A stretch of DNA of 64,000 bases from a phage. Location of the stretch: the sequence record PX423614.1. The stretch is one strand, 5' to 3'. The notes under the pieces are model-generated. The model saw only the letters and a list, made by a program, of their open reading frames with translations. It was not told where the DNA came from and ran no database searches. This document shows, piece by piece, positions 1 through 38,224 of the stretch; positions within the stretch are counted from its first letter, which is position 1, and the number at the start of each line of letters is the position of its first letter. A program made the position numbers and the translations under genes.

Positions 1-186
1 AGCCTCTGTTAAGGGGCTATAATAGTGACTATGATCAGGCTAATGATAACCTATGATAACTACTAGTAACACTATGCAACTATACCATTGATGACCATCC
101 CCCATAGTTTGAATGTAATAACTTATGTGATTATTCATGAGTGGATTATTGATGTATGTATCATTAGACTGGTAGTTGTTTACTTT

Positions 187-261
187 AGTTATTATTTTTA
201 TTCTTTCTTTTAATCTTTTTCTTTTATTCTTTTCTTTTTCAGCGTTTCTTTTTTCTTTTGA
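187..261. repeat. T/C-rich polypyrimidine tract near the window's left end
   Basis: ~75 nt composed almost entirely of T and C on the + strand; no ORF. Confidence 0.5.
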
Positions 262-330
262 TGAGTAGATTTTTGACTGGTAATTTACTACCGCATGGTC
301 TGACCTGTTACCTGTAACTAACTTACATTA

Positions 331-430
331 TATCCTACCCGTTTCCCCTTCCTCGTTAGGCTTCTTACCCATTGGCTAACCTATGCGGCACGTCTTACCC
401 ATCTATCTATCCCGTTGGTCTACTACCCGT
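331..430. repeat. iteron-like direct repeats YTACCC(A/G)T at ~30-bp spacing
   Basis: CTACCC/TTACCC copies ending at 340, 370, 400 and 428. Confidence 0.5.
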
Positions 431-547
431 TCTATAAGTGTTATAAAATTGTAAACTGTATCTCTGAATAAGAAAGTTTAGTAAATTAAATTCCTTTTAT
501 ATTCAGTGAGTTAGGATTATAAATCTAAATAGTTTGAAAATAAGTGG

Positions 548-575
548 TTGACATGTTTTTCCTTTAATGTATAGT
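548..575 (+). promoter_or_regulatory. sigma70-like early promoter
   Basis: TTGACA (548-553), 16-bp spacer, TATAGT (570-575) with TG immediately upstream; ~135 bp before the first gene. Confidence 0.5.
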
Positions 576-709
576 TGCAATCGTAGTTTGAATTATCGTT
601 AATGAAGCAGTGATGTAAAGTAGTTAGCGGTGATAGTGAGTAGTGAAGGTTGATCAGCCTAAGTAACTACACACAACAAACAATCTTTCATCTATCAGGA
701 GTAGTAATA

Positions 710-1210
710 ATGGCTATCAAAGCAATGCAGGCTATCAATCTAGCGTCTTATGCACTGGTTGCAGCTATCGGTGTTAGTGTTATCGCTACCAATGTTCAGG
801 CTAAAGATGATAAAGCGTTATCCGCTCCTACAGGTCTGCAATCCTTTGTTAGCACGTTTAAGAATGCTCCTGATATGGTCTGCCGTGACGTTGGTAGTGA
901 TGGTAATGATGCCTTCTGGAAGGTGCATTTTAACTCTGTAACCGTAAAAGATGTGCGTGTCACTCTTACCCCGTTGGACGAGAAATCTGGCACTCAATCA
1001 GTTATTAAATTGAAACGTGCTGATAGTGATCGTGATATGGTGACGTATTCTCTGTATCAGAAGATTGAGAAAGAGAAATTACAGTTTGTAACTAATCTCG
1101 TTAGTTATGGTGATGTAAGTGAAACCGTACTCGCTACTACTGCTTATCATGACGGTGTAGCAGTTTATACAACCTTTATTAACTTTGCTAATTGTGAGGC
1201 TATTCAATGA
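710..1210 (+). CDS. secreted/periplasmic early protein
   Basis: AGGAG RBS 8 nt before ATG 710; hydrophobic N-terminal signal-peptide-like segment ending VQA; ORF track frame. Confidence 0.55.
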   Translation: MAIKAMQAINLASYALVAAIGVSVIATNVQAKDDKALSAPTGLQSFVSTFKNAPDMVCRDVGSDGNDAFWKVHFNSVTVKDVRVTLTPLDEKSGTQSVIKLKRADSDRDMVTYSLYQKIEKEKLQFVTNLVSYGDVSETVLATTAYHDGVAVYTTFINFANCEAIQ

Positions 1211-1455
1211 ACGAATCATTTGCAACCGTGATAAACGCCTACATGTGCATCCAGCATGGTGATTTGGTTATCAGTGGCAAGTATGGGCTTGTATTGATTC
1301 CTATCCGTGCATTAGTAACCTTGTCTTCATTACGTGCACGCATGACCATTGCTCAGTTGTCCGGCCTTGACCCGATGGATGCTAGCGAGTATCGTGATTT
1401 GCTGGTTAAGTCTGGTTTATCGCTGGAAGAACTGTTAACCGTCGAGGATAATTAA
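1207..1455 (+). CDS. hypothetical early protein
   Basis: ORF with ATGA start/stop overlap to upstream gene. Confidence 0.5.
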   Translation: MNESFATVINAYMCIQHGDLVISGKYGLVLIPIRALVTLSSLRARMTIAQLSGLDPMDASEYRDLLVKSGLSLEELLTVEDN

Positions 1456-1457
1456 CG

Positions 1458-1730
1458 ATGGAAACTATTGCCATTATTGAAACACATAATTACGGTGTAG
1501 GCGTTACGCTGAATTATGACGCTATGGCTGACGTTGGTAATTTGTTATTGATCACCCCTAGCGATATGAAAATTATTGCCTTCACTGGTATTATGCTTAT
1601 TGGTGCGGATTATCTTGAGCTAGCCCAGTTCTTTGCCCGTAATGGCCTACTATTGGACATTGACGAGGTGCAAGCCATTTGTGAAACCTTTGATAACCAT
1701 CTAGATAAGGTAGTAAGTGGTGACTCATAA
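1458..1730 (+). CDS. hypothetical early protein
   Basis: ORF tightly packed after previous gene. Confidence 0.5.
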   Translation: METIAIIETHNYGVGVTLNYDAMADVGNLLLITPSDMKIIAFTGIMLIGADYLELAQFFARNGLLLDIDEVQAICETFDNHLDKVVSGDS

Positions 1731-1821
1731 GTATTTCTTGCATTGCCTGATTGCTTTCTGTATCATGTTATTTATCTATGACATGTTTTTCTTTGTTGCA
1801 CATTCTTCTTGAGGTTGAATC

Positions 1822-2148
1822 ATGAAAACTAAGTTAGCTGTATGTGCTGCCTTGTTCGCTATTTCTTCCGTGTCCTATGCTGCCGTATTCAATGAGTCTA
1901 GCCTTGATGGTCTGCAATGCACCTATCTAATGGAAAACTATGACACTGGCAAGAAGTCCAGCAAGGTAGTATTGATTGACCTGAATGACTATGATCATCG
2001 TGTCGTTGATGGCAAGTATGCGATGCTTGTTAATGAAACTACAGGCAAACAAATCACCATAGATCACATGATGCGGTCTAGTATGACGTTGTTCGACGAG
2101 TCGATGAACGAAATAGCATCAGGTAATGGCACTTGCACCAATCCGTAA
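1822..2148 (+). CDS. secreted early protein
   Basis: N-terminal signal peptide MKTKLAVCAALFAISSVSYA; RBS-like GAGG upstream. Confidence 0.55.
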   Translation: MKTKLAVCAALFAISSVSYAAVFNESSLDGLQCTYLMENYDTGKKSSKVVLIDLNDYDHRVVDGKYAMLVNETTGKQITIDHMMRSSMTLFDESMNEIASGNGTCTNP

Positions 2149-2167
2149 CTAATCCGTAAGACTTCCT

Positions 2168-2193
2168 AAGCGCCCTTTTGAGGCGCTTTTTTC
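2168..2193 (+). terminator. rho-independent terminator
   Basis: hairpin AAGCGCC...GGCGCTT followed by T-run. Confidence 0.6.
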
Positions 2194-2354
2194 ATTTCTA
2201 AGGTGATTGCACATCTTGCCCCTGTTTAGCTCGTTAGAACGCCTCCTGTATGCCTTATTTTCGATTATAGGGCTTGTTTTCTTCCTCCCCTGATGTTATT
2301 CGTGTGCGCGTTCCTCTGTACACAAAAGAAAGTGAAATTATTTTAGAAAAAGGC

Positions 2355-2382
2355 TTGCAACGGTTTTATAATAGTGTATATT
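2355..2382 (+). promoter_or_regulatory. sigma70-like early promoter
   Basis: TTGCAA (2355-2360), 16-bp spacer, TG + TATATT (2377-2382). Confidence 0.45.
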
Positions 2383-2422
2383 GAATCTTGTCAGGACGTG
2401 ATGCATTAAGTTACCTCCTGAT

Positions 2423-2455
2423 AGGCTAGATGTTTAGCCTTGCTCTTTAATAATT
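2423..2455 (+). promoter_or_regulatory. rrn-type antiterminator element (boxB-like hairpin + boxA-like TGCTCTTTAATAATT)
   Basis: hairpin AGGCTA...TAGCCT immediately followed by TGCTCTTTAATAATT, near-identical to the E. coli rrn boxA TGCTCTTTAACAATTTA. Confidence 0.5.
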
Positions 2456-2507
2456 CGATTAGTGTATCTTGATAAACTCCCAACCATGCCATAATGAGGA
2501 TTTATCA

Positions 2508-2708
2508 ATGAACGTGTATACCTTCTCAAGCAAAGACACGCAAATCACTTGCACTAGCATTAACGTTACTAACATGATTATGAGAATAGTCGGTAGTACG
2601 CTACAGCAAGCTAAAGAGATGATAGCCGATGCCGATAAAGGCAAATCTATCGCAGTGTTATCGCTGGTAAGTACGGATAAAGATTTAACCTTTAAGCGTA
2701 TGAACTAA
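2508..2708 (+). CDS. hypothetical small early protein (66 aa)
   Basis: GAGGA RBS before ATG 2508; in-frame within track ORF 2469-2708. Confidence 0.5.
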   Translation: MNVYTFSSKDTQITCTSINVTNMIMRIVGSTLQQAKEMIADADKGKSIAVLSLVSTDKDLTFKRMN

Positions 2709-2780
2709 GGTAAGGTAAGGTAAGGTTAGCGGCCTTAATGGTCGCTAGTTTATCAAGATGCATTAATCGAAAAATAGTTG

Positions 2781-2808
2781 TTGACACATCGAATCACTAT
2801 GATAAGAT
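2781..2808 (+). promoter_or_regulatory. sigma70-like early promoter with AT-rich upstream element
   Basis: TTGACA (2781-2786), 16-bp spacer, TGa + TAAGAT (2803-2808). Confidence 0.55.
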
Positions 2809-2840
2809 GTTCACACGGTCAGCGATGACATAAAACATCC

Positions 2841-2874
2841 GGCACTAAGTGCCCCGCTCTTTAATAATTTATCA
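2841..2874 (+). promoter_or_regulatory. rrn-type antiterminator element (hairpin + boxA-like CGCTCTTTAATAATTTATCA)
   Basis: hairpin GGCAC-taa-GTGCC then CGCTCTTTAATAATTTATCA; 18/20 identical to the rrn boxA region GCTCTTTAACAATTTATCA. Confidence 0.55.
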
Positions 2875-2939
2875 TCTTGCCCTTTCGCAAAGATTCACGC
2901 GAGATAAGGGAAAGAATTAAAAGAAGATGATAAAAAGAG

Positions 2940-2967
2940 TTGACAAGCTAACACGATGTGTTAAGCT
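2940..2967 (+). promoter_or_regulatory. sigma70-like early promoter with A-rich UP-like element
   Basis: TTGACA (2940-2945), 16-bp spacer, TGt + TAAGCT (2962-2967); A-rich tract upstream. Confidence 0.55.
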
Positions 2968-2981
2968 GAAAGTGTAGTAAC

Positions 2982-2997
2982 CGCTCTTTAAAAATAT
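2982..2997 (+). promoter_or_regulatory. boxA-like element CGCTCTTTAAAAATAT
   Basis: third copy of the CGCTCTTTAA core about 10 nt downstream of the predicted start site. Confidence 0.45.
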
Positions 2998-3097
2998 GAA
3001 TCAGAAAGTTAAGCGCAACCGCTTACAATCTTGTTAATCCAATACGCGATTAACTGGTCATTCGAAAGAATAGACGAGAAAAAGATTTAAAAAGTGG

Positions 3098-3126
3098 TTG
3101 ACACGCTAAACAGGATGATTCATAAT
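3098..3126 (+). promoter_or_regulatory. strong sigma70 consensus-like early promoter
   Basis: TTGACA (3098-3103), 17-bp spacer, CATAAT (3121-3126); A/T-rich upstream. Confidence 0.6.
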
Positions 3127-3207
3127 GAGCACTCACTAGGCAACTAGTGAAACGTGAAACCACGGCGAACGGTGGCGGGAAGTGAGAAAGCACTTCGATA
3201 GATTTAC

Positions 3208-3227
3208 CGCTCTTTAACAATTTAAAC
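3208..3227 (+). promoter_or_regulatory. rrn-type boxA-like element CGCTCTTTAACAATTTAAAC
   Basis: matches the rrn boxA core GCTCTTTAACAATTT exactly; preceded by hairpin CCACGGCGAACGGTGG. Confidence 0.55.
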
Positions 3228-3229
3228 TT

Positions 3230-4039
3230 CTTCCTATATCGGTTGAACATGGTGAGCAATAATAACCATTGCAAGCTATGCCAGATAAAACGATGTAAGG
3301 CGCTCTAGAGTATCAGAGGAAACCGCTTTACAATCCCTTACTGGAAACGACACCACTGATAAATGAAGTTATTGAGTACATGCAAGGCTTAAGCTAATCG
3401 CCTACGGTTAAAGGGTAGCGGCGGCGGTGCTAGTAAAGTGCTACAATAATAGACGTTTATCGGGGTAGTTAAGTCCGACGAATTAACGCTCAATAGCGAG
3501 CGGCGGGAGGGGGTTAAAGAATGGCAAATTGCTATTTAACAATAAGGTTTAAGCGTGAGTATTTACTAAGTGAGTGTTTTGATACACATCAATAGCGATG
3601 TGAGTACATAAACATGTAGTGTAGTAAATCGTGAGAGAGATAATCAAACGCCAAAGTATCAGGCGGTCAATGACTCTTTACCATATGCTTTCCCATAGTA
3701 GGCGATAAGCAGGTTTAGAGAGTTGATATAAAAGGGTATCACGAAGCGAAAGCAAAGTAAATAGTAATGCCATCGGCTAGAAATTTAGCTAATTAGAGAT
3801 GGACGCGCTTGCCTTATTGTGATGATTGATCATCGCTGGCAAATCGGCTTTGTTTATAGCGATTAGTTAAATCCACCAGATGAAACATCACGGCAAGTTA
3901 GGCGGCAAGGTTAACTCCTGATAAGACCGCCTGATTTACCACTGGTTACTAGTAGTTAGTGATTAGTGTTAAGTCATTGTGACTTGAATAGCTCATAGAG
4001 AGCGGCGCATAGTGCGTTTACAATTGAAAGGTGAATATC
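3230..4039 (+). other. ~800-nt untranslated leader / candidate non-coding RNA region downstream of tandem promoter-boxA modules
   Basis: no ORF of 60 aa or more on either strand in the track; recurring motif GC(G/T)TTTACAAT at about 3019, 3339 and 4011; GCGGCGG-rich segments. Confidence 0.35.
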
Positions 4040-4942
4040 ATGGCTAAAGTTTTTAATCTGGTTAACGAATCCGGCTTTAATGCACTGGCAAACAACATTC
4101 GTAGTAACAACGCGGCAATCAAACAAGATGTTTCTAACTTCTTGTTAGGCCATTTGCAGCACTTCCGCACTAACGGTAAGAAACTGGATGTATTGCAGTC
4201 GGCGGTTGATTTTCTGTTAACTGAACGTTACCGTGATTTAGATGTAATTTCGGTTGCAATCTCTTTCCTTACTCCTATCAAATATAACACTGACGGGGCG
4301 AACGGTAAGAAGAAATGGATTAATCTGGAAGGTGAAGCGAAAGCTAAAGAAGATGCTAAACCGGAACAGGTTAAATCTAAAATGGAACAAAACCGCGCCC
4401 GCTGGTCGAACTCCTTTGAACGCTTTGCTAAAGGTGAAGACGTGCAGGTTGATAACCCAGCATTCTACAAAGGTTGTAATGACAACGTTCCGGTAGCAAA
4501 TCAAATCAACCAGAAGGTTAACGAAAACTTTAATCAGGATATTTATGCACTGGTTGACCGTCTGGCTGCAATCCGTATTGAAGCGGCACTACTGGCAGAT
4601 GAACGCAATGGCGCATCTTCTGACAATACCATCGCGTTGAGTGAAGAGGTTGGCAAAGTTAAGAAAACTTTTGATTCACTCCTTAAGAAAGTAACCGCGT
4701 CAACCGTATCAATCAGCGATGACTACCTGATCAATGCGTCAATGAAAGAGCTTGAGTCGCTGGACTCTTACGCTGATGAAATGGAAAAGGCGATCAACGA
4801 AATGACTGAGAAATTATCTAACCTTCGCGGTCGTATCTCAAACGCCTCAACTGTTAAAGCTAACGAGAAAGCTGCGCAGGAAGAGGAAGAAGTATTGCGC
4901 AAGGCCGCTGAGATTATGGCAGCGCGTCAACTGGCAGCATAA
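4040..4942 (+). CDS. abundant early protein of unknown function (300 aa)
   Basis: AAAGGTG RBS before ATG 4040; long ORF; followed by strong terminator. Confidence 0.6.
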   Translation: MAKVFNLVNESGFNALANNIRSNNAAIKQDVSNFLLGHLQHFRTNGKKLDVLQSAVDFLLTERYRDLDVISVAISFLTPIKYNTDGANGKKKWINLEGEAKAKEDAKPEQVKSKMEQNRARWSNSFERFAKGEDVQVDNPAFYKGCNDNVPVANQINQKVNENFNQDIYALVDRLAAIRIEAALLADERNGASSDNTIALSEEVGKVKKTFDSLLKKVTASTVSISDDYLINASMKELESLDSYADEMEKAINEMTEKLSNLRGRISNASTVKANEKAAQEEEEVLRKAAEIMAARQLAA

Positions 4943-4961
4943 CCAACAATAAAACACATGA

Positions 4962-4994
4962 GGCGCTATTCGAAAGGGTAGCGCCTTTTTCTTT
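4962..4994 (+). terminator. rho-independent terminator
   Basis: hairpin GGCGCTA...TAGCGCC followed by TTTTTCTTTT. Confidence 0.65.
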
Positions 4995-5049
4995 TACTAG
5001 TGCATTGATTCAGTGTGCTAATCAAAGAAACTAAAAAGAGATAAACACC

Positions 5050-5274
5050 ATGCCAAAACTGAAAACAGAAGTTAAGATGTATCGTAACATTCTCAACAAC
5101 ATGACCTATCGTAAAACCGATAAATACGGAATCGAATGCAAATGCATTCTTACTGGCGAGTGGTATCCGTCGCCGATTCAAGAACAAGCATTGATTGAAA
5201 ACTCTGTTACTTACACTATCACGCAGGAAACTAAGCTAGGCCGATTCCTTCGTAAGCTGGGGTTACGCAAATGA
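5050..5274 (+). CDS. hypothetical early protein
   Basis: ORF track; AAGAG upstream. Confidence 0.45.
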   Translation: MPKLKTEVKMYRNILNNMTYRKTDKYGIECKCILTGEWYPSPIQEQALIENSVTYTITQETKLGRFLRKLGLRK

Positions 5275-5492
5275 TCTTAACTCAATCCCATTTGTGCCCT
5301 ATCTGTAAGAAAGCACGTGCTAATAACAACCATCGCAAATGTAGCAGAATACTACAGCGTCGTCGTAATGATGCCGAGATGGATAAGATTAAAAAGAATC
5401 AGCATGAGCACGAAAGAAAACAAGCGGCGATTAGTGCATCAACTGTTATGTATCGTCGTGTAAGATCACTCCAATATAAAGGGGCTATTTAA
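5271..5492 (+). CDS. hypothetical basic protein with CxxC motif
   Basis: ORF with 4-nt overlap to neighbour; CPIC motif. Confidence 0.45.
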   Translation: MILTQSHLCPICKKARANNNHRKCSRILQRRRNDAEMDKIKKNQHEHERKQAAISASTVMYRRVRSLQYKGAI

Positions 5493-5701
5493 TGACCAGC
5501 TTAAGCACGTTAGAGAAGAAAGCTACTCGTTTGTTAGGACGTCGTGTCCGCTATCACTACCTGAATAAAGGTAAGGCATTAACCGGACGTATTACCACGG
5601 TATCTAGTTGTCGTGGTAAACTGATCTCTGTAAGTGTTCTCTTTGATGGCGAAAAGGTAGCAATTACACGTAGTTGGAAGTCATTTAGTTTAATTGATTA
5701 A
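5492..5701 (+). CDS. hypothetical protein
   Basis: ORF track; start overlaps upstream stop. Confidence 0.45.
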   Translation: MTSLSTLEKKATRLLGRRVRYHYLNKGKALTGRITTVSSCRGKLISVSVLFDGEKVAITRSWKSFSLID

Positions 5702-5771
5702 GTTATTTGGTTAAGCCTTGCTGTGTGGTAAGGCTTGCACGATATAATTTATCAGCGAAAGGAATAAAGAA

Positions 5772-6215
5772 ATGGCTAAATCTAAAATCAGCATGAAAGG
5801 CGGACGAGTGTTCTCTATGAGTGAGCTGGAAAAAGAAAAGCCAGCCGCTGTTAACCATATTAGCAAACGTAGCCTTAAACGAAGAGCTATCAAACAAGCC
5901 GCTCAAGAACATAAGCCTTCTACCGTAGCGAAGGTGTTAGGTCGTCGTGTTCATCGTGCTGATGCGCTTCTTCTTGCTGATCACAAGCGTTCTCTGTTAA
6001 CCAACGGTGCAGCAAAAACAGAACAAGAAAAACGTTTAGAAATCTTTTGTAACGGTCGCACTAAAGGTAAGCAGAAGAATAAAGGTAGCACTAAGCCACC
6101 GAAAGCATTTCCTACTACTAGCCAATGTGCACCAGATGTTTTCTACGCTGATAGTAAACATAAGTGGGGAGTTGAAAAATATATTGACCCAATCAAAACA
6201 GCAAGAGTTAAGTAA
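5772..6215 (+). CDS. hypothetical highly basic protein
   Basis: GGAATAAAGAA RBS region; Lys/Arg-rich ORF. Confidence 0.5.
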   Translation: MAKSKISMKGGRVFSMSELEKEKPAAVNHISKRSLKRRAIKQAAQEHKPSTVAKVLGRRVHRADALLLADHKRSLLTNGAAKTEQEKRLEIFCNGRTKGKQKNKGSTKPPKAFPTTSQCAPDVFYADSKHKWGVEKYIDPIKTARVK

Positions 6216-6245
6216 GCCCCTTCTGTACCAGTAGTCAACTACTAT

Positions 6246-6293
6246 GACGCTCTTCTTGAGCGTCTTTGTCTGCCGCCTTTGTGCGGCTTTTTG
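6246..6293 (+). terminator. tandem terminator hairpins
   Basis: GACGCTC...GAGCGTC then GCCGCC...GCGGC followed by TTTTTG. Confidence 0.5.
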
Positions 6294-6452
6294 CGTAGCT
6301 AGTGATGCCTAAAGGGAACCCCCTTTGTGAATCATTGGCATGGTTCAATCCCTATTGGATGGTCATTTGACCGGGCCTTTAACGAGGCCTCTTTTTTAAG
6401 AGTCTTTACGAGGATTCTTAAATGAGTGAGGTCATGTTCACTCTTTCAGGTC

Positions 6453-6479
6453 GCCCCGTCTTCGGATGGGGCTTTTTTA
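6453..6479 (+). terminator. rho-independent terminator
   Basis: GCCCCgtcttcggatGGGGC followed by TTTTTT. Confidence 0.65.
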
Positions 6480-6530
6480 TGCCCGTAAAACAGGGGGTAG
6501 TAAGTTCTGATAACGACAGCCCAGCTACTT

Positions 6531-6917
6531 TTGACATTGACTATTTATTATGAGGCAGGGAATCAGCCAACCGCTTGCAAAGCATTAGTAGCGGATACCG
6601 TAATAAACAGAATGTCACAACGAAAACTGACTGCCGAGCAGGTTATAAATCAACGAAACCAGTTCGAGTGGATACCCGTCCTATTAAAGAAGGAGAAACC
6701 TTTTAAGCGTTATGTAAAGCTGATTCGTGATGATAATCCTCTGACGAAGAAGTCAATCAGAGAGAGCGAGTGGCTTGCAAGGCGTGCACTGAAGAAAGGT
6801 TATGTGCCTTTGTACAGCGGTACATACTTTCAGAGTAAGAGCGAAGGGGTGCCAAAGTGGTATACCAATCCGATGTATTGTGGTGATTTAGTGTTCAATA
6901 ATAGCTCCCGCGATTGA
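6531..6917 (+). CDS. CwlJ/SleB-like cell-wall hydrolase domain protein
   Basis: motifs IYYEAGNQ, VINRM, NQFEWI, WLARRALKKG and YF...WY resemble the CwlJ/SleB hydrolase family; only in-frame start is TTG 6531. Confidence 0.45.
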   Translation: MTLTIYYEAGNQPTACKALVADTVINRMSQRKLTAEQVINQRNQFEWIPVLLKKEKPFKRYVKLIRDDNPLTKKSIRESEWLARRALKKGYVPLYSGTYFQSKSEGVPKWYTNPMYCGDLVFNNSSRD

Positions 6918-7118
6918 TTCATAGGTGCCAAGATTGACAAACTAAATTTCCTTATAAATCACACACTTATGATTTTCTCTGTAAAAAGTGGAAGTGATTT
7001 GGGACCAGAGGTAATGACTGTATATAGACCTCTGAAAATTATTGATAGAAATTAAGTTTAGAAATAATAAATTCTAAATAATATTTCTTATAATATCTTA
7101 CTTTAAGAGGATAAAGAT

Positions 7119-7424
7119 ATGACTTTAGAGGTTTATAAATTCCTTCTCGTACTCACTGTAACGATCTCTACTCTGGGATTTATTGCTTTAAGTAATAAGT
7201 CAGCAAGCTGGAAGCGTCGTTATGAGTTCCTTCTTAAGCAAGAGGAAGTCTTTAATGCTGATGTTCGTTCCAAACTGTTCAAAATGCAGGAGCAAATTGA
7301 AGCACGTAACGATCGTTTGGCTTCTTTGGGTTGGGAGATTAAGCGTATTCAAGATCTCAATAAGCAACTCACTGAAGAAATTAAACGCCAGAATGAGGAA
7401 ACAGAGGATGCGCTCAAAGGTTAA
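7119..7424 (+). CDS. membrane-anchored coiled-coil protein
   Basis: N-terminal hydrophobic helix then charged coiled-coil-like sequence; RBS AAGAGG. Confidence 0.5.
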   Translation: MTLEVYKFLLVLTVTISTLGFIALSNKSASWKRRYEFLLKQEEVFNADVRSKLFKMQEQIEARNDRLASLGWEIKRIQDLNKQLTEEIKRQNEETEDALKG

Positions 7425-7584
7425 GTTTACCACTGGTAACACTGTCCGCCTTGTTGGCGGTACTCAAACAGGTGTTATTCGTCGGAGAACAACGATTGAT
7501 GGTGTTCTCTGTTATCTTGTTCAGTGGAATGGTGAGTCTTCTCCTTCCTTCGAACGTCGTACTGATTTGGTGCTAGTCAAATGA
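7408..7584 (+). CDS. small protein (58 aa)
   Basis: ATG 7408 in frame of track ORF 7222-7584; GAGGA RBS; overlaps previous gene end. Confidence 0.4.
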   Translation: MRSKVKFTTGNTVRLVGGTQTGVIRRRTTIDGVLCYLVQWNGESSPSFERRTDLVLVK

Positions 7585-7814
7585 AGATGAACTTCGAAAT
7601 CATCCCAAAGGTTAAAGAAAAGCAGCTAATCTTCAGTGATCTCTCTAACGGGGATATTTTTAAATTTAAGAATGTTGATGCTGATACTTATCTTTGGATG
7701 AAAATTGACAAACGGTCTGCCATGAAGTTAAGTGACACTTCTGACATCACTGATGTATTTATCCATTCTGAAGTCTCTAAGTACAAATACAAAATTATCA
7801 TTGAGGGTAAGTGA
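7581..7814 (+). CDS. small early protein, member of GDxF paralog family
   Basis: shares a conserved L..G[DE].F motif (here LSNGDIF) with six other ORFs in 7.8-13.1 kb. Confidence 0.5.
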   Translation: MKMNFEIIPKVKEKQLIFSDLSNGDIFKFKNVDADTYLWMKIDKRSAMKLSDTSDITDVFIHSEVSKYKYKIIIEGK

Positions 7815-8044
7815 TGAAAATTAATCTCTTCTCTGTAGTTGTTACTAAAAAGCTCAGTGAGTTACGTCCGGGTGATGTATTCCGTTTACCGACTAACTCT
7901 GAAAATGTCTACCTAAAGACAGACACTAGCCTTAACGATATGCATCGTGTGGTTGGTCTTAGTCAGGGGACACTGTTCCAATTACAGGAAGACCATGAAG
8001 TTATCCCTGTACCTGATGTTCAAGTAACTCATATTGGTGGTTAA
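7811..8044 (+). CDS. small early protein, GDxF paralog family
   Basis: LRPGDVFRL...VIPVP motif pattern shared with paralogs. Confidence 0.55.
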   Translation: MMKINLFSVVVTKKLSELRPGDVFRLPTNSENVYLKTDTSLNDMHRVVGLSQGTLFQLQEDHEVIPVPDVQVTHIGG

Positions 8045-9868: not shown

Positions 9869-9944
9869 GCACCCTTAGCTCAATGGACAGAGCAGCGACC
9901 TTCTAAGTCGTTGGTTACAGGTTCGAATCCTGTAGGGTGCACCA
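9869..9944 (+). tRNA. tRNA-Arg (anticodon UCU)
   Basis: cloverleaf: acceptor GCACCCT/AGGGTGC, D-stem GCTC/GAGC, anticodon stem-loop with TCT at positions 34-36, T-arm ACAGG-TTCGAAT-CCTGT, encoded 3' CCA. Confidence 0.85.
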
Positions 9945-13078: not shown

Positions 13079-13083
13079 CATCT

Positions 13084-13111
13084 ATAGCCCTCGTGAGTAT
13101 CAGAGGGCTAT
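13084..13111 (+). repeat. conserved hairpin ATAGCCCTC...GAGGGCTAT (copy 2 of duplicated intergenic module)
   Basis: 9-bp stem; homologous to 8279-8306; followed by GCTAGGGAGAG and GAACATCCG..GATAG as in copy 1. Confidence 0.5.
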
Positions 13112-13319
13112 GTGAGCTATTCTGGCTCAACTAACCTAATCTTAATTTAATCTTTCCCGTATGGGGCCGATGCTAGGGAGAGGAATAATCCTCGAACATC
13201 CGTCGGATAGAATATTTTAAGAGCAGGTTATCCACAGATATTGGGTGATATCTATTTAATTGGCCTTAAAGCTTGGCTCTCTTATGAGAGTCCTTTTTTA
13301 AGTTCAAAGAAGAGGTTGT

Positions 13320-13487
13320 ATGGATAATAAGTTGAAAGCTAAATTCTTATTGGCAGCAATCTTTATTTGCTTAGCCACTGTGGGGTTTGTCAGGATGTAC
13401 TCTTTTGCATCTTGCGAGTTAAGCAAGAATAACAGAGGGTCTTACAACTGGCTAACCAATCAATGTGACAAACAGGAGAAGTTATGA
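13320..13487 (+). CDS. small membrane/secreted protein (55 aa)
   Basis: AAGAGG RBS; hydrophobic N-terminus; stop overlaps next ATG. Confidence 0.4.
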   Translation: MDNKLKAKFLLAAIFICLATVGFVRMYSFASCELSKNNRGSYNWLTNQCDKQEKL

Positions 13488-37842: not shown

Positions 37843-37882
37843 TGACTAGTTCAGTGGAAGAGTTGAATGGTATTACGAAATG

Positions 37883-37909
37883 AACTAGTCTTATTGATTA
37901 GTTCTTTTT
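37883..37909 (+). terminator. rho-independent terminator
   Basis: GAACTA...TAGTTC followed by TTTTT. Confidence 0.5.
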
Positions 37910-38224
37910 AAGGAGACAAGGAAGTGGAAGAAGTAAAAAGTTCTGAATGGTGCTTGAAGCAACAAAAGCTCGCACAGGATGAAGGTCGTTTTGAAGACGC
38001 TAAAGCTTATGGTGAATTATTTCAAACATGGGTAGAACGAGAGGAGAAAGCTAAATGATGGACCTGATTCGTAAACCCGCCCCAAAGTGGAACATCTATT
38101 ACCAAGATTCCACTGGTAAATTTCATAACCAACTGGTTTATACTGATGAAGAGCGCGATGAAGTCGTTGCTCAGATTGAAGCAGATGGTGGTACAGTTCT
38201 CAAAATCTACGAAAGGAATTAATA

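Follow-up and report, generated by a model that had tools for sequence, protein, structure and literature searches.

A conserved multi-domain RNA behind rRNA-type boxA motifs in the early region of phiEco32-like phages

The phage sequence record PX423614.1 was analysed as a window of 64,000 nucleotides, and this work concerns the gene-free stretch at positions 3230-4039, together with the early transcription unit to which it belongs. The closest records over this region are those of phage NC-B and vB_EcoP_PAS59, at 96-99% identity, and the phage is a phiEco32-like podophage (Gordonclarkvirinae, Kuravirus). The stretch sits between a small variable open reading frame (ORF) at 2508-2708 and the homologue of phiEco32 gene 124, whose ATG is at 4040. 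ORFs of at least 60 amino acids (aa) cover 91% of the window, and the largest gap without such an ORF on either strand is 3275-4030 (756 nt); the next largest are 1-649, at the genome terminus, 13079-13483 and 37843-38224. The initial annotation, made from the sequence alone, had described 3230-4039 as ORF-free, and indeed no ORF of at least 60 aa lies inside it on either strand, the longest ones wholly within it having 25-34 aa; the single one of at least 60 aa that touches it is a minus-strand ORF of 74 aa (3050-3274) that runs over promoter P3 and a boxA motif. The true non-coding block exceeds that interval and spans 2709-4039. In phiEco32 the homologous gap measures 1,944 bp, from gene 125 to gene 124, and carries no annotation, and it is also left empty in the SU7 and PAS59 records; one GenBank record places seven tiny ORFs in it, on both strands. 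We present evidence that there is very little doubt about the presence here of a conserved structured RNA, preceded by boxA motifs of the kind found in ribosomal RNA (rrn) operons.

The entire 810-nt stretch is present in all 98 related GenBank records, at 73-99% identity. Conservation and periodicity were analysed on an alignment of 26 phages. Variable sites are spread evenly over the three positions modulo 3 of the stretch (163:159:156; p=0.93), and no 90-nt window of it is periodic in this alignment, in contrast to gene 124, where the same count gives 60:344:91 (p=1e-64). Variable columns amount to 47% of the stretch, versus 82% at the third and 19-28% at the first two positions of codons; the stretch is about as conserved as the neighbouring gene, and its length is 804-815 nt in 25 of the 26 phages. 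The region is non-coding. Several translated small proteins, which would have accounted for it otherwise, are supported neither by the substitution periodicity nor by a survey of plus-strand ORFs of at least eight codons, none of which has a ribosome-binding site together with a start and a frame that are both conserved.

For the structure, we aligned thirty distinct sequences from GenBank, IMG/VR and metagenomes, and combined prediction by RNAalifold with pair counts set against two controls, namely, shuffled alignments and slid partners. The RNAalifold model has 229 base pairs. Its cells are paired in 99.3% of cases, which none of 500 shuffles reaches, versus 93.1% after shuffling and 34-47% with slid partners; 77 pairs show compensatory double changes, versus a shuffled mean of 40.9 and 7-10 with slid partners; and the covariation score is 0.254, versus 0.129 and 0.03-0.06, respectively. 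There are 724 G-U cells against 23 A-C cells, with 22 pairs that are mainly G-U, and this asymmetry shows that the structure belongs to the transcribed strand. Likewise, the alifold energy is -237.8 for the plus strand versus -145.2 for its reverse complement, and the single-sequence folding z-score is -4.45 versus -2.1 for the minus strand. Five held-out sequences outside the model keep 226 of the 229 pairs or, for those of the LAMP clade, 205-206 of the 209 pairs that can be aligned there. Scanning for stacked covarying columns revealed helices beyond the nested model, namely, an inter-domain pairing and a rod, with which the pair counts agree. Invariance extends to many single-stranded segments, as tertiary contacts or bound partners would lead one to expect. 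What is generally asked of a conserved structured RNA, compensatory changes above controls, on one strand and in independent sequences, is thus found here.

More distant relatives were retrieved by protein search with the product of the gene 124 homologue (gp124), in SRA and ENA assemblies, where they lie on contigs of 6-100 kb; the gp124 homologues on those contigs are 45-69% identical. These relatives (L168-L180) have no counterpart among 50,697 GenBank phage records, and from their sequences they appear to be an uncultivated group, sister to the Gordonclarkvirinae, whose gene-free leaders are longer still and reach ~3 kb. In every fetched contig, 1.4-3 kb upstream of the gene are without called genes, save for one or two small ORFs in three contigs. 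A search by nhmmer with a profile of the RNA matches these regions over their full length (E=1e-106 to 1e-15), and the eleven distant RNA relatives have pairwise identities to the window of 43-61%. In a plain sequence alignment, 70% of the model pairs are standard in them, versus 36-42% with slid partners. For many helices the figure reaches 92-100%, and most of their pairs have both bases replaced. The inter-domain pairing stands at 99% (n=99 cells), the rod helices are 92-100% paired with 6, 4, 2 and 7 double-change pairs, and the hairpin at 3940-3968 is 96% paired with both sides changed in 9 of its 10 pairs. The closing helix of domain I differs in sequence in every lineage and keeps its complementarity (TATCTGAC/GTCAGATA, ATTCTTTC/GAAAGAAT, CTTTG/CAAAG). 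All eleven carry one to three boxA copies, on the coding strand only, the last copy 870-936 nt ahead of the gene; downstream of the gene there is a terminator as well (L169 4967-4992, L173 4975-5004), and the order of promoter, boxA, RNA, gene and terminator holds in the most distant of the relatives. The proposal that the stretch is a structured leader or non-coding RNA rather than spacer is therefore upheld by the lack of a coding signal, the fixed length, the covariation on the transcribed strand, the held-out sequences and these relatives of 43-61% identity.

The RNA comprises two closed domains, a rod and a series of hairpins, for which coordinates are given in Table 1; the helices of both domains are based on RNAalifold and pair counts. 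In domain II, helix 3629-34/3739-44 has double changes in all six of its pairs. The inter-domain pairing joins the apical region of domain I to a hairpin loop of domain II, is 100% paired in the thirty sequences and includes two double-change pairs. The twin hairpins at the 3' end lie 20-35 nt upstream of the gene-124 start; their (A)AUAG-type loops are conserved in 12 of 12 lineages, and their stems covary (GCUC/GAGC, CCCC/GGGG, UCUC/GAGA, GCGC/GCGC, ACUC/GAGU). Ahead of the RNA body, the leader hairpin at 3179-3196 (GUG-AGAAAG-CAC) is boxB-like, with double changes in three of six pairs and four pair types at one position.

Table 1. Features of the early transcription unit and its RNA, in window coordinates; the two strands of a helix are separated by a slash.
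Feature	Position	Strand	Details
Intrinsic terminator	2168-2188		end of preceding operon
Promoter-like P0	2355-2382	+	TTGCAA-16-TATATT; consensus scan; weaker; upstream of boxA copy 1
boxA copy 1	2442-2454	+	GCTCTTTAATAAT; hairpin 2423-2440 before
Long-range helix	2456-2478/2747-2769	+	23 bp uninterrupted; starts 2 nt after boxA copy 1
Early promoter P1	2781-2808	+	TTGACA-16-TAAGAT, extended-10 TG; consensus scan
boxA copy 2	2856-2868	+	GCTCTTTAATAAT; hairpin GGCACTAAGTGCC at 2841-2853 before
Early promoter P2	2940-2968	+	TTGACA, extended-10 TGTTAAGCT; by inspection of sequence
boxA copy 3	2983-2995	+	GCTCTTTAAAAAT
Early promoter P3	3098-3126	+	TTGACA-17-CATAAT, 11/12 matches; A/T-rich upstream tract
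Leader hairpins	3160-3163/3172-3175 and 3179-3184/3191-3196	+	
boxA copy 4	3209-3221	+	GCTCTTTAACAAT; last before RNA body
RNA body	~3221-4018	+	~0.8 kb, multi-domain
Domain I	3221-3518	+	closing helix 3221-3234/3505-3518, starts directly after boxA
Domain I inner helices	3239-42/3475-78, 3248-53/3275-80, 3281-84/3341-44, 3295-3306/3315-31	+	
Domain I extended helix	3349-3379/3438-3470	+	26 bp with small loops
Domain I hairpin	3487-91/3498-3502	+	
Hairpin between domains	3519-3526/3530-3537	+	
boxA-like motif	3531-3543	+	GCTATTTAACAAT; one mismatch at critical position 4; GCAAATTGCTATTTAA invariant
Domain II	3539-3820	+	closed by 3539-3548/3811-3820 and 3553-3557/3804-3808
Domain II inner helices	3560-66/3757-63, 3575-87/3600-14, 3629-34/3739-44, 3649-52/3662-65	+	
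Domain II further inner helices	3666-76/3718-27, 3688-94/3701-09, 3770-80/3785-3802	+	
Inter-domain tertiary pairing	3397-3405 (AUCGCCUAC) with 3698-3706 (GUAGGCGAU)	+	9 bp; covariation
Extended rod	3817-3824/3886-3893, 3831-3834/3879-3882, 3837-3839/3873-3875	+	apical hairpin 3842-3849/3858-3864
Hairpin	3899-3905/3927-3933	+	apical segment GCAAGGUUAACUCCUGAUAAGAC near-invariant
Hairpins	3940-3949/3959-3968 and 3970-3975/3981-3986	+	
Twin operator-like hairpins	3991-3994/4000-4003 and 4004-4008/4014-4018	+	
Ribosome-binding site and gene 124 homologue	4026-4942	+	AAGGTG; 300 aa from ATG 4040
Strong intrinsic terminator	4960-4987	+	12-bp stem, T-run; ends unit

Some parts of the architecture vary, overlap or admit a second pairing. 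The variable arm of domain II (~3639-3690) has an insertion or replacement in the LAMP clade: these Kuraviruses of 67-69 kb (L025, which is LAMP, and L164/L165, which are Bas93/Bas92) carry a different, longer segment in place of the hairpin at 3649-3665 and its surroundings, and the total RNA length of LAMP is 844 nt. The rod shares 3817-3820 with the 3' strand of the domain II closing helix. In phage TH42 (L010), a G to A change at 3819 is matched by C to U changes at 3540, in that closing helix, and at 3891, in the rod; the overlap and these changes may reflect alternative conformations. Three sequences (L011, L031, L043) are mosaics, in which the 5' two-thirds of one clade are joined to a 3' hairpin array and gene-124 start near-identical to those of the window's clade, which indicates recombination break-points inside the RNA (region 3830-4039). 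Separately, boxA (CCGCUCUUUA, 3207-3216) is complementary over 10 nt to UAGAGAGCGG (3995-4004) near the 3' end of the RNA, and the minimum-energy fold of the single sequence pairs the two, with the whole RNA enclosed; all three AGCGGCGG repeats (including 3416-3424 and 3498-3506) also hold the complement of the 5' end of boxA. Both partners of the boxA/UAGAGAGCGG pairing are invariant, so covariation is uninformative there; a possible role of this pairing is that of an anti-boxA element through which the Nus complex is released.

Several candidate structures were discarded. The long-range repeat I15 (3658-3668/3925-3935), a perfect match of 11 nt, was dropped for two local covarying helices, and two hairpins of the RNAalifold model, 3400-03/3413-16 and 3879-82/3886-89, gave way to alternatives with better support. 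Between 2850 and 3130 the RNAalifold helices are almost invariant and overlap promoters, hence structure is not demonstrable there; helix 2868-2878/2924-2934 has one covarying pair only, in an unstable alignment.

The motifs that had first drawn attention to the stretch fared unequally. Its inverted repeats are real and turn out to be conserved RNA helices, and the GCGGCGG-rich character also stands: the three copies of GCGGCGG in the window all fall at 3418-3506, where 0.95 are expected and 8 of 100 shuffles reach three, and they are unchanged among homologues. By contrast, the motif GC(G/T)TTTACAAT, which had been said to recur, has one full match, at 4014-4024, and two matches with at most one mismatch versus 2.76 expected, no more than chance would give; the other two sites are shorter variants, at ~3017-3026 (GCTTACAAT) and at 3325-3334 (GCTTTACAAT) rather than 3339. 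The first half of the motif differs in the other clade (GCCCTTACAAT), since it forms one side of a hairpin that covaries.

The initial annotation had placed the stretch behind a set of strong promoters with antitermination signals, and both the promoter scan and the boxA scan agree with it. Each of the three sigma-70 promoters P1, P2 and P3 is followed by a boxA, and three sigma-70 promoters are present in this spacer in the published annotation of SU10 and phiEco32 (PMC4281155). P3 is conserved across all aligned phages, and from its sequence transcription would start near 3133; TTGACAAGCTAAC of P2 is conserved in most relatives; and P0 belongs to a variable module of some phages, since 2236-2810 aligns in part of the relatives only. 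The gamma-proteobacterial boxA consensus is GYTCTTTAANA (PMC5725501), to which there are four perfect matches (2442, 2856, 2983 and 3209), all on the plus strand; counting near-copies with at most one mismatch, five lie on one strand within 1.1 kb, versus 0.63 expected in the whole 64 kb. Copy 2 with its flank is identical to the Escherichia coli rrnB leader boxA at 18 of 19 positions. Copy 3 matches the boxA of the E. coli rrnB 16S-23S spacer in full (13/13), with CGCTCTTTAA invariant in 26 phages, and copy 4 with its flank (GCTCTTTAACAATTTA) likewise matches the rrnB leader sequence of K-12 in full (16/16), with AGATTTACCGCTCTTTAA invariant. The boxA-like motif at 3531 probably is not a functional boxA, judging from its sequence: a C4T/T6C double mutation in the suhB boxA abolishes SuhB association (PMC5725501), and we left this motif out of the boxA count because its mismatch is at position 4, one of the two changed in that loss-of-function mutant. 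Scanning IMG/VR for the 16-nt boxA word returned at least 120 contigs, which are a mixed set.

In rrn operons boxB comes before boxA, the reverse of the order in lambda (PMC8632103), and in the phage the hairpins at 2423-2440, 2841-2853 and 3179-3196 precede boxA copies 1, 2 and 4, respectively; the loop of the rrnB boxB is GAGAAAAA. The position of boxC is taken by the 5' strand of the domain I closing helix. The other boxA copies also directly precede the 5' strand of a longer-range helix, the best example being 2456-2478/2747-2769, which brackets the 66-aa ORF at 2508-2708. This helix is paired in 10 of 10 module-carrying sequences, with two G-U pairs, and its sequence is invariant, so no covariation signal is possible; at 23 bp it is a candidate substrate for RNase III.

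The gene 124 homologue is the sole protein gene of the unit. The terminator scan found no terminator between the RNA and this gene, and the one that follows it is annotated in SU7 and WFI101126. The protein belongs to PHROG 13018, where no function is assigned, and has no Pfam match. Its AF2 model is helical, with a C-terminal helix of 65 residues and a pLDDT of 81.8, and gave no informative structural match. By their sequence, the twin hairpins resemble an operator bound by protein; as the only protein of the unit, gp124 is the most evident candidate for binding them.

These features suggest a model for how the RNA might be made. Host RNA polymerase starting at these promoters would take up the Nus-factor/SuhB complex (NusB/E-NusA-NusG-SuhB) at boxA, as on rRNA operons, and would become Rho-resistant across 0.8-1.2 kb of untranslated RNA. 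The strand directly behind boxA would stay tethered at the RNA exit until its partner emerges ~285 nt later, whereby domain I would be closed; domain II, the 9-bp inter-domain pairing, the rod and five hairpins would form next. The folded RNA, made before or together with the first phage protein, would serve as a ribonucleoprotein scaffold or decoy, with gp124 as a possible partner. We infer Nus recruitment, Rho protection and the tethering that would chaperone folding from the established behaviour of boxA (PMC5725501; PMC8632103), and by this analogy the use of rrn-type antitermination appears likely. On the whole we lean, with some reserve, towards a new multi-domain structured RNA of ~0.8 kb in an rrn-antiterminated early unit, whose fold is itself the product, an abundant early scaffold or decoy; so many conserved pairs, together with a tertiary contact and loops that do not vary, suggest a function of the fold as such. 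We are more hesitant about the RNA acting in trans as a separate particle, which is conceivable though somewhat doubtful, and its release from the messenger RNA (mRNA), the identity of its partner and action in trans are all speculative. It is tempting to go further and to see the unit as a mimic of the rRNA operon, in which host promoter style and the host antitermination and chaperone complex build a two-domain RNA particle, possibly with gp124, as a host-takeover or anti-defence effector in trans. Such a particle would be built within seconds of infection, before any phage protein, and could sequester a host RNA-binding factor, a nuclease or components of ribosome biogenesis; we consider this unlikely.

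The E. coli rrn leaders and spacers are among the closest known systems. The boxA is identical, a boxB-type hairpin lies upstream, and both have a long transcript that is highly structured and not translated; the segment immediately after boxA pairs hundreds of nt downstream and closes a domain; tandem strong promoters have A/T-rich upstream tracts; and a second boxA-like motif stands at the entry of the second domain. In the model of the rRNA elongation complex, the strand behind boxA is thought to be delivered to its complement beyond 16S rRNA (PMC8632103), and both the boxB-boxA order of the phage and the distant partner of its post-boxA strand match that model (PMC8632103). The phage unit is unlike rrn in that the RNA is phage-encoded, a GU-rich boxC is lacking and a protein gene follows; of the three sequence features of the rrn site, boxA and the boxB hairpin are present. 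Beyond boxA, mimicry of rRNA sequence itself was discarded, as only chance words of 9-11 nt are shared with the rrnB operon.

Among phage systems, lambda nut/N and HK022 put also give early transcripts an RNA signal that makes host polymerase termination-resistant, and lambda antitermination employs boxA and Nus factors as well (PMC8632103). The phage unit differs in having boxB then boxA, the reverse of lambda, and in having a large folded RNA domain downstream where lambda and HK022 have a short signal; moreover, no N-like protein can act here because the signal precedes every gene of the unit. The early leader of T7 has promoters A1-A3 and the RNase III site R0.3 before gene 0.3, within ~400 nt and with a single RNase III hairpin as its known structured element. 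Both leaders are found in virulent podoviruses, behind three tandem strong host-type promoters at the leading end and untranslated before the first early gene, and the one described here differs by its ~250 conserved pairs in two closed domains. ColE1 RNA II is a folded transcript of ~550 nt with an essential conformation and G-rich segments; here neither origin features nor an antisense partner were found, and a translated gene comes next.

We found no known family to which the RNA belongs. At Rfam gathering thresholds the whole window gives only a tRNA-Arg; nothing relevant appears at E<=1 on 1-8000, and at E<=10 on 3130-4060 there are two chance-level matches of 15 bits. None of the Rfam 15 families of GOLLD, ROOL, OLE, HEARO, group I/II introns, RNase P, tmRNA, 6S, riboswitches or ribosomal-protein leaders is matched. 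Similarly, 5,426 E. coli genomes show no similarity at E<=10, that is, no host copy and no spacer-sized match, and a 27-nt core motif has zero exact matches in 185,579 species-representative genomes. GOLLD, ROOL and OLE are large (~600-800 nt), intricate non-coding RNAs whose function is unknown and which were found by covariation, and GOLLD and ROOL are often borne by phages or prophages (PMC12286853). GOLLD and ROOL are the closest in kind to the phage RNA, but there is no family membership, with no Rfam match even at E<=10; and, compared with all three, the phage RNA occurs in virulent Enterobacteria phages, in an mRNA leader behind boxA and not beside tRNAs. A large survey of RNA motifs in phages is confined to elements of 29-151 nt (PMC10690425), and fragments of this RNA could be present in its tables unrecognised as one RNA. 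The searchable literature, which leaves the primary phiEco32 papers (Savalia 2008, Pavlova 2012) outside, makes no mention of boxA, non-coding RNA or transcript mapping for this region. Based on these comparisons, we regard the RNA as a new family among the large structured RNAs of phages, with a probable coupling to rrn-type antitermination that is likewise new.

A number of observations weigh against the scaffold or decoy RNA that we favour, in whole or in part. Since whole clades inherit the same compensatory changes, cell counts overstate the number of independent events, and several helices of domain I are only 27-57% paired in the distant relatives under a sequence-based alignment, which may be due to misalignment or to real differences. 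No GU-rich boxC lies 3' of the phage boxA, which is followed by TTTAAACTTCTTCC versus TGTGTGGG in rrnB. The fold predicted for gp124 does not hint at RNA binding. Published work open to search, a set without the primary phiEco32 papers (Savalia 2008, Pavlova 2012), holds no RNA-seq, Northern or primer-extension result for the region. Finally, the sequence bears no sign that the RNA is cut free or trans-acting; with no terminator between it and gene 124, a purely cis-acting leader would account for the data equally.

Such a leader, acting purely in cis through protection of the 5' end, sites for processing by RNase III or RNase E as in the T7 early leader, or control of gene 124 translation via the twin hairpins, is an alternative that we judge rather unlikely. 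It would agree with the continuity between the RNA and gene 124, with the placing of operator-like hairpins so close to the start codon in all lineages, and with a single-gene unit, in which the RNA and gp124 are always co-expressed. RNase III needs a helix of about 20 bp or more, and both helix 3349-3379/3438-3470 (26 bp) and the upstream helix of 23 bp are long enough. However, ~250 conserved pairs, domains of 285-nt span, the inter-domain pairing and the invariant single strands exceed the needs of known leaders; the length stays within 1% among close relatives, and the entire architecture is kept at 43-61% identity. Coding by micro-ORFs of less than ~25 aa overlooked by gene callers, for which the seven tiny ORFs of one GenBank record could be invoked, is in our view a very remote prospect. 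The best case is the ORF at 3819/3822-3866 (14-15 aa), whose start and length are kept in 29 of 30 sequences, in a nearly invariant stretch; however, its W to Y change (TGG to TAT) goes with a compensating change of CCA to ATA that lies beyond the ORF, and this points to RNA constraint. A 24-aa ORF at 3521 has GGAGG 9 nt upstream, but its frame is broken by a 1-nt indel in the other clade, and a 19-aa ORF at 3249 loses its ATG in two phages and differs in 9 of 19 residues between clades. Codon periodicity is found nowhere in the region, and gene callers leave it empty in most distant relatives; the tiny ORFs called here in some GenBank records are probably spurious.

Two further explanations concern replication and the DNA itself. 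The initial annotation had named a replication element among its options, and a transcript that primes or activates an origin by R-loop, like ColE1 RNA II or the promoter-linked origins of T7/T4, might be expected behind strong promoters and with G-rich RNA segments such as the three GCGGCGG copies; the GC skew, 0.15-0.18, is the highest in the first 10 kb, and ColE1 RNA II is likewise a long folded primer RNA. This option is not supported, and we rate it as highly improbable: no AT-rich unwinding region exists, GC content being 0.40-0.41 and equal to the surroundings, no iterons were found, the G-rich segments are paired or invariant parts of the RNA fold, the G-U pairs point to RNA, and gp79 stops early sigma-70 transcription before the replication (middle) genes act (PMC8948821). 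A DNA-level element, namely, a packaging or injection signal, an array of protein-binding sites or a cruciform, with an RNA devoid of function, could draw on the location ~3-4 kb from a genome end whose terminal 650 bp are ORF-free too, and on the way T7-like podoviruses pull their DNA into the cell by transcription of the leading end. Yet only an RNA fold of this one strand accounts for the excess of G-U pairs, which neither double-stranded DNA nor the complementary strand would explain, and the compensatory changes keep pairing and not sequence, which leaves this explanation with hardly any credit.

Elsewhere in the early region, a tRNA-Arg (anticodon TCT) lies at 9869-9944, and a weak Rfam match at 6403-6480 (anti-hemB, 20 bits, E=0.34) corresponds to a hairpin and U-run after a 147-aa gene, a probable intrinsic terminator. 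The 108-aa ORF at 1822-2148 has a signal-peptide-like N-terminus (MKTKLAVCAALFAISSVSYA) and is labelled 'terminase' in several GenBank records and in PHROG 13168; the label is implausible given its small size, and the protein looks secreted from its sequence.

To our knowledge, few classes of bacterial or phage RNA longer than 500 nt with conserved tertiary architecture have been described, and GOLLD, ROOL, OLE and raiA are still without a function. The 'empty' region of 1.3-3 kb in ~100 GenBank genomes is very probably an RNA gene, in a common and easily grown group of E. coli phages; its isolates in the BASEL collection plate on E. coli K-12, which makes genetics, probing, cryo-EM and pull-downs feasible. 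If the proposed model is true, it would be a clear case of a virulent phage copying the host rRNA antitermination signal for a long untranslated RNA, and it would provide a natural system in which to study whether the rRNA elongation complex acts, as has been proposed, as an RNA chaperone, here on a substrate that is not ribosomal. Should the RNA also turn out to act in trans as a host-takeover or anti-defence effector, no large structured RNA of that kind would have been described before in a virulent coliphage.

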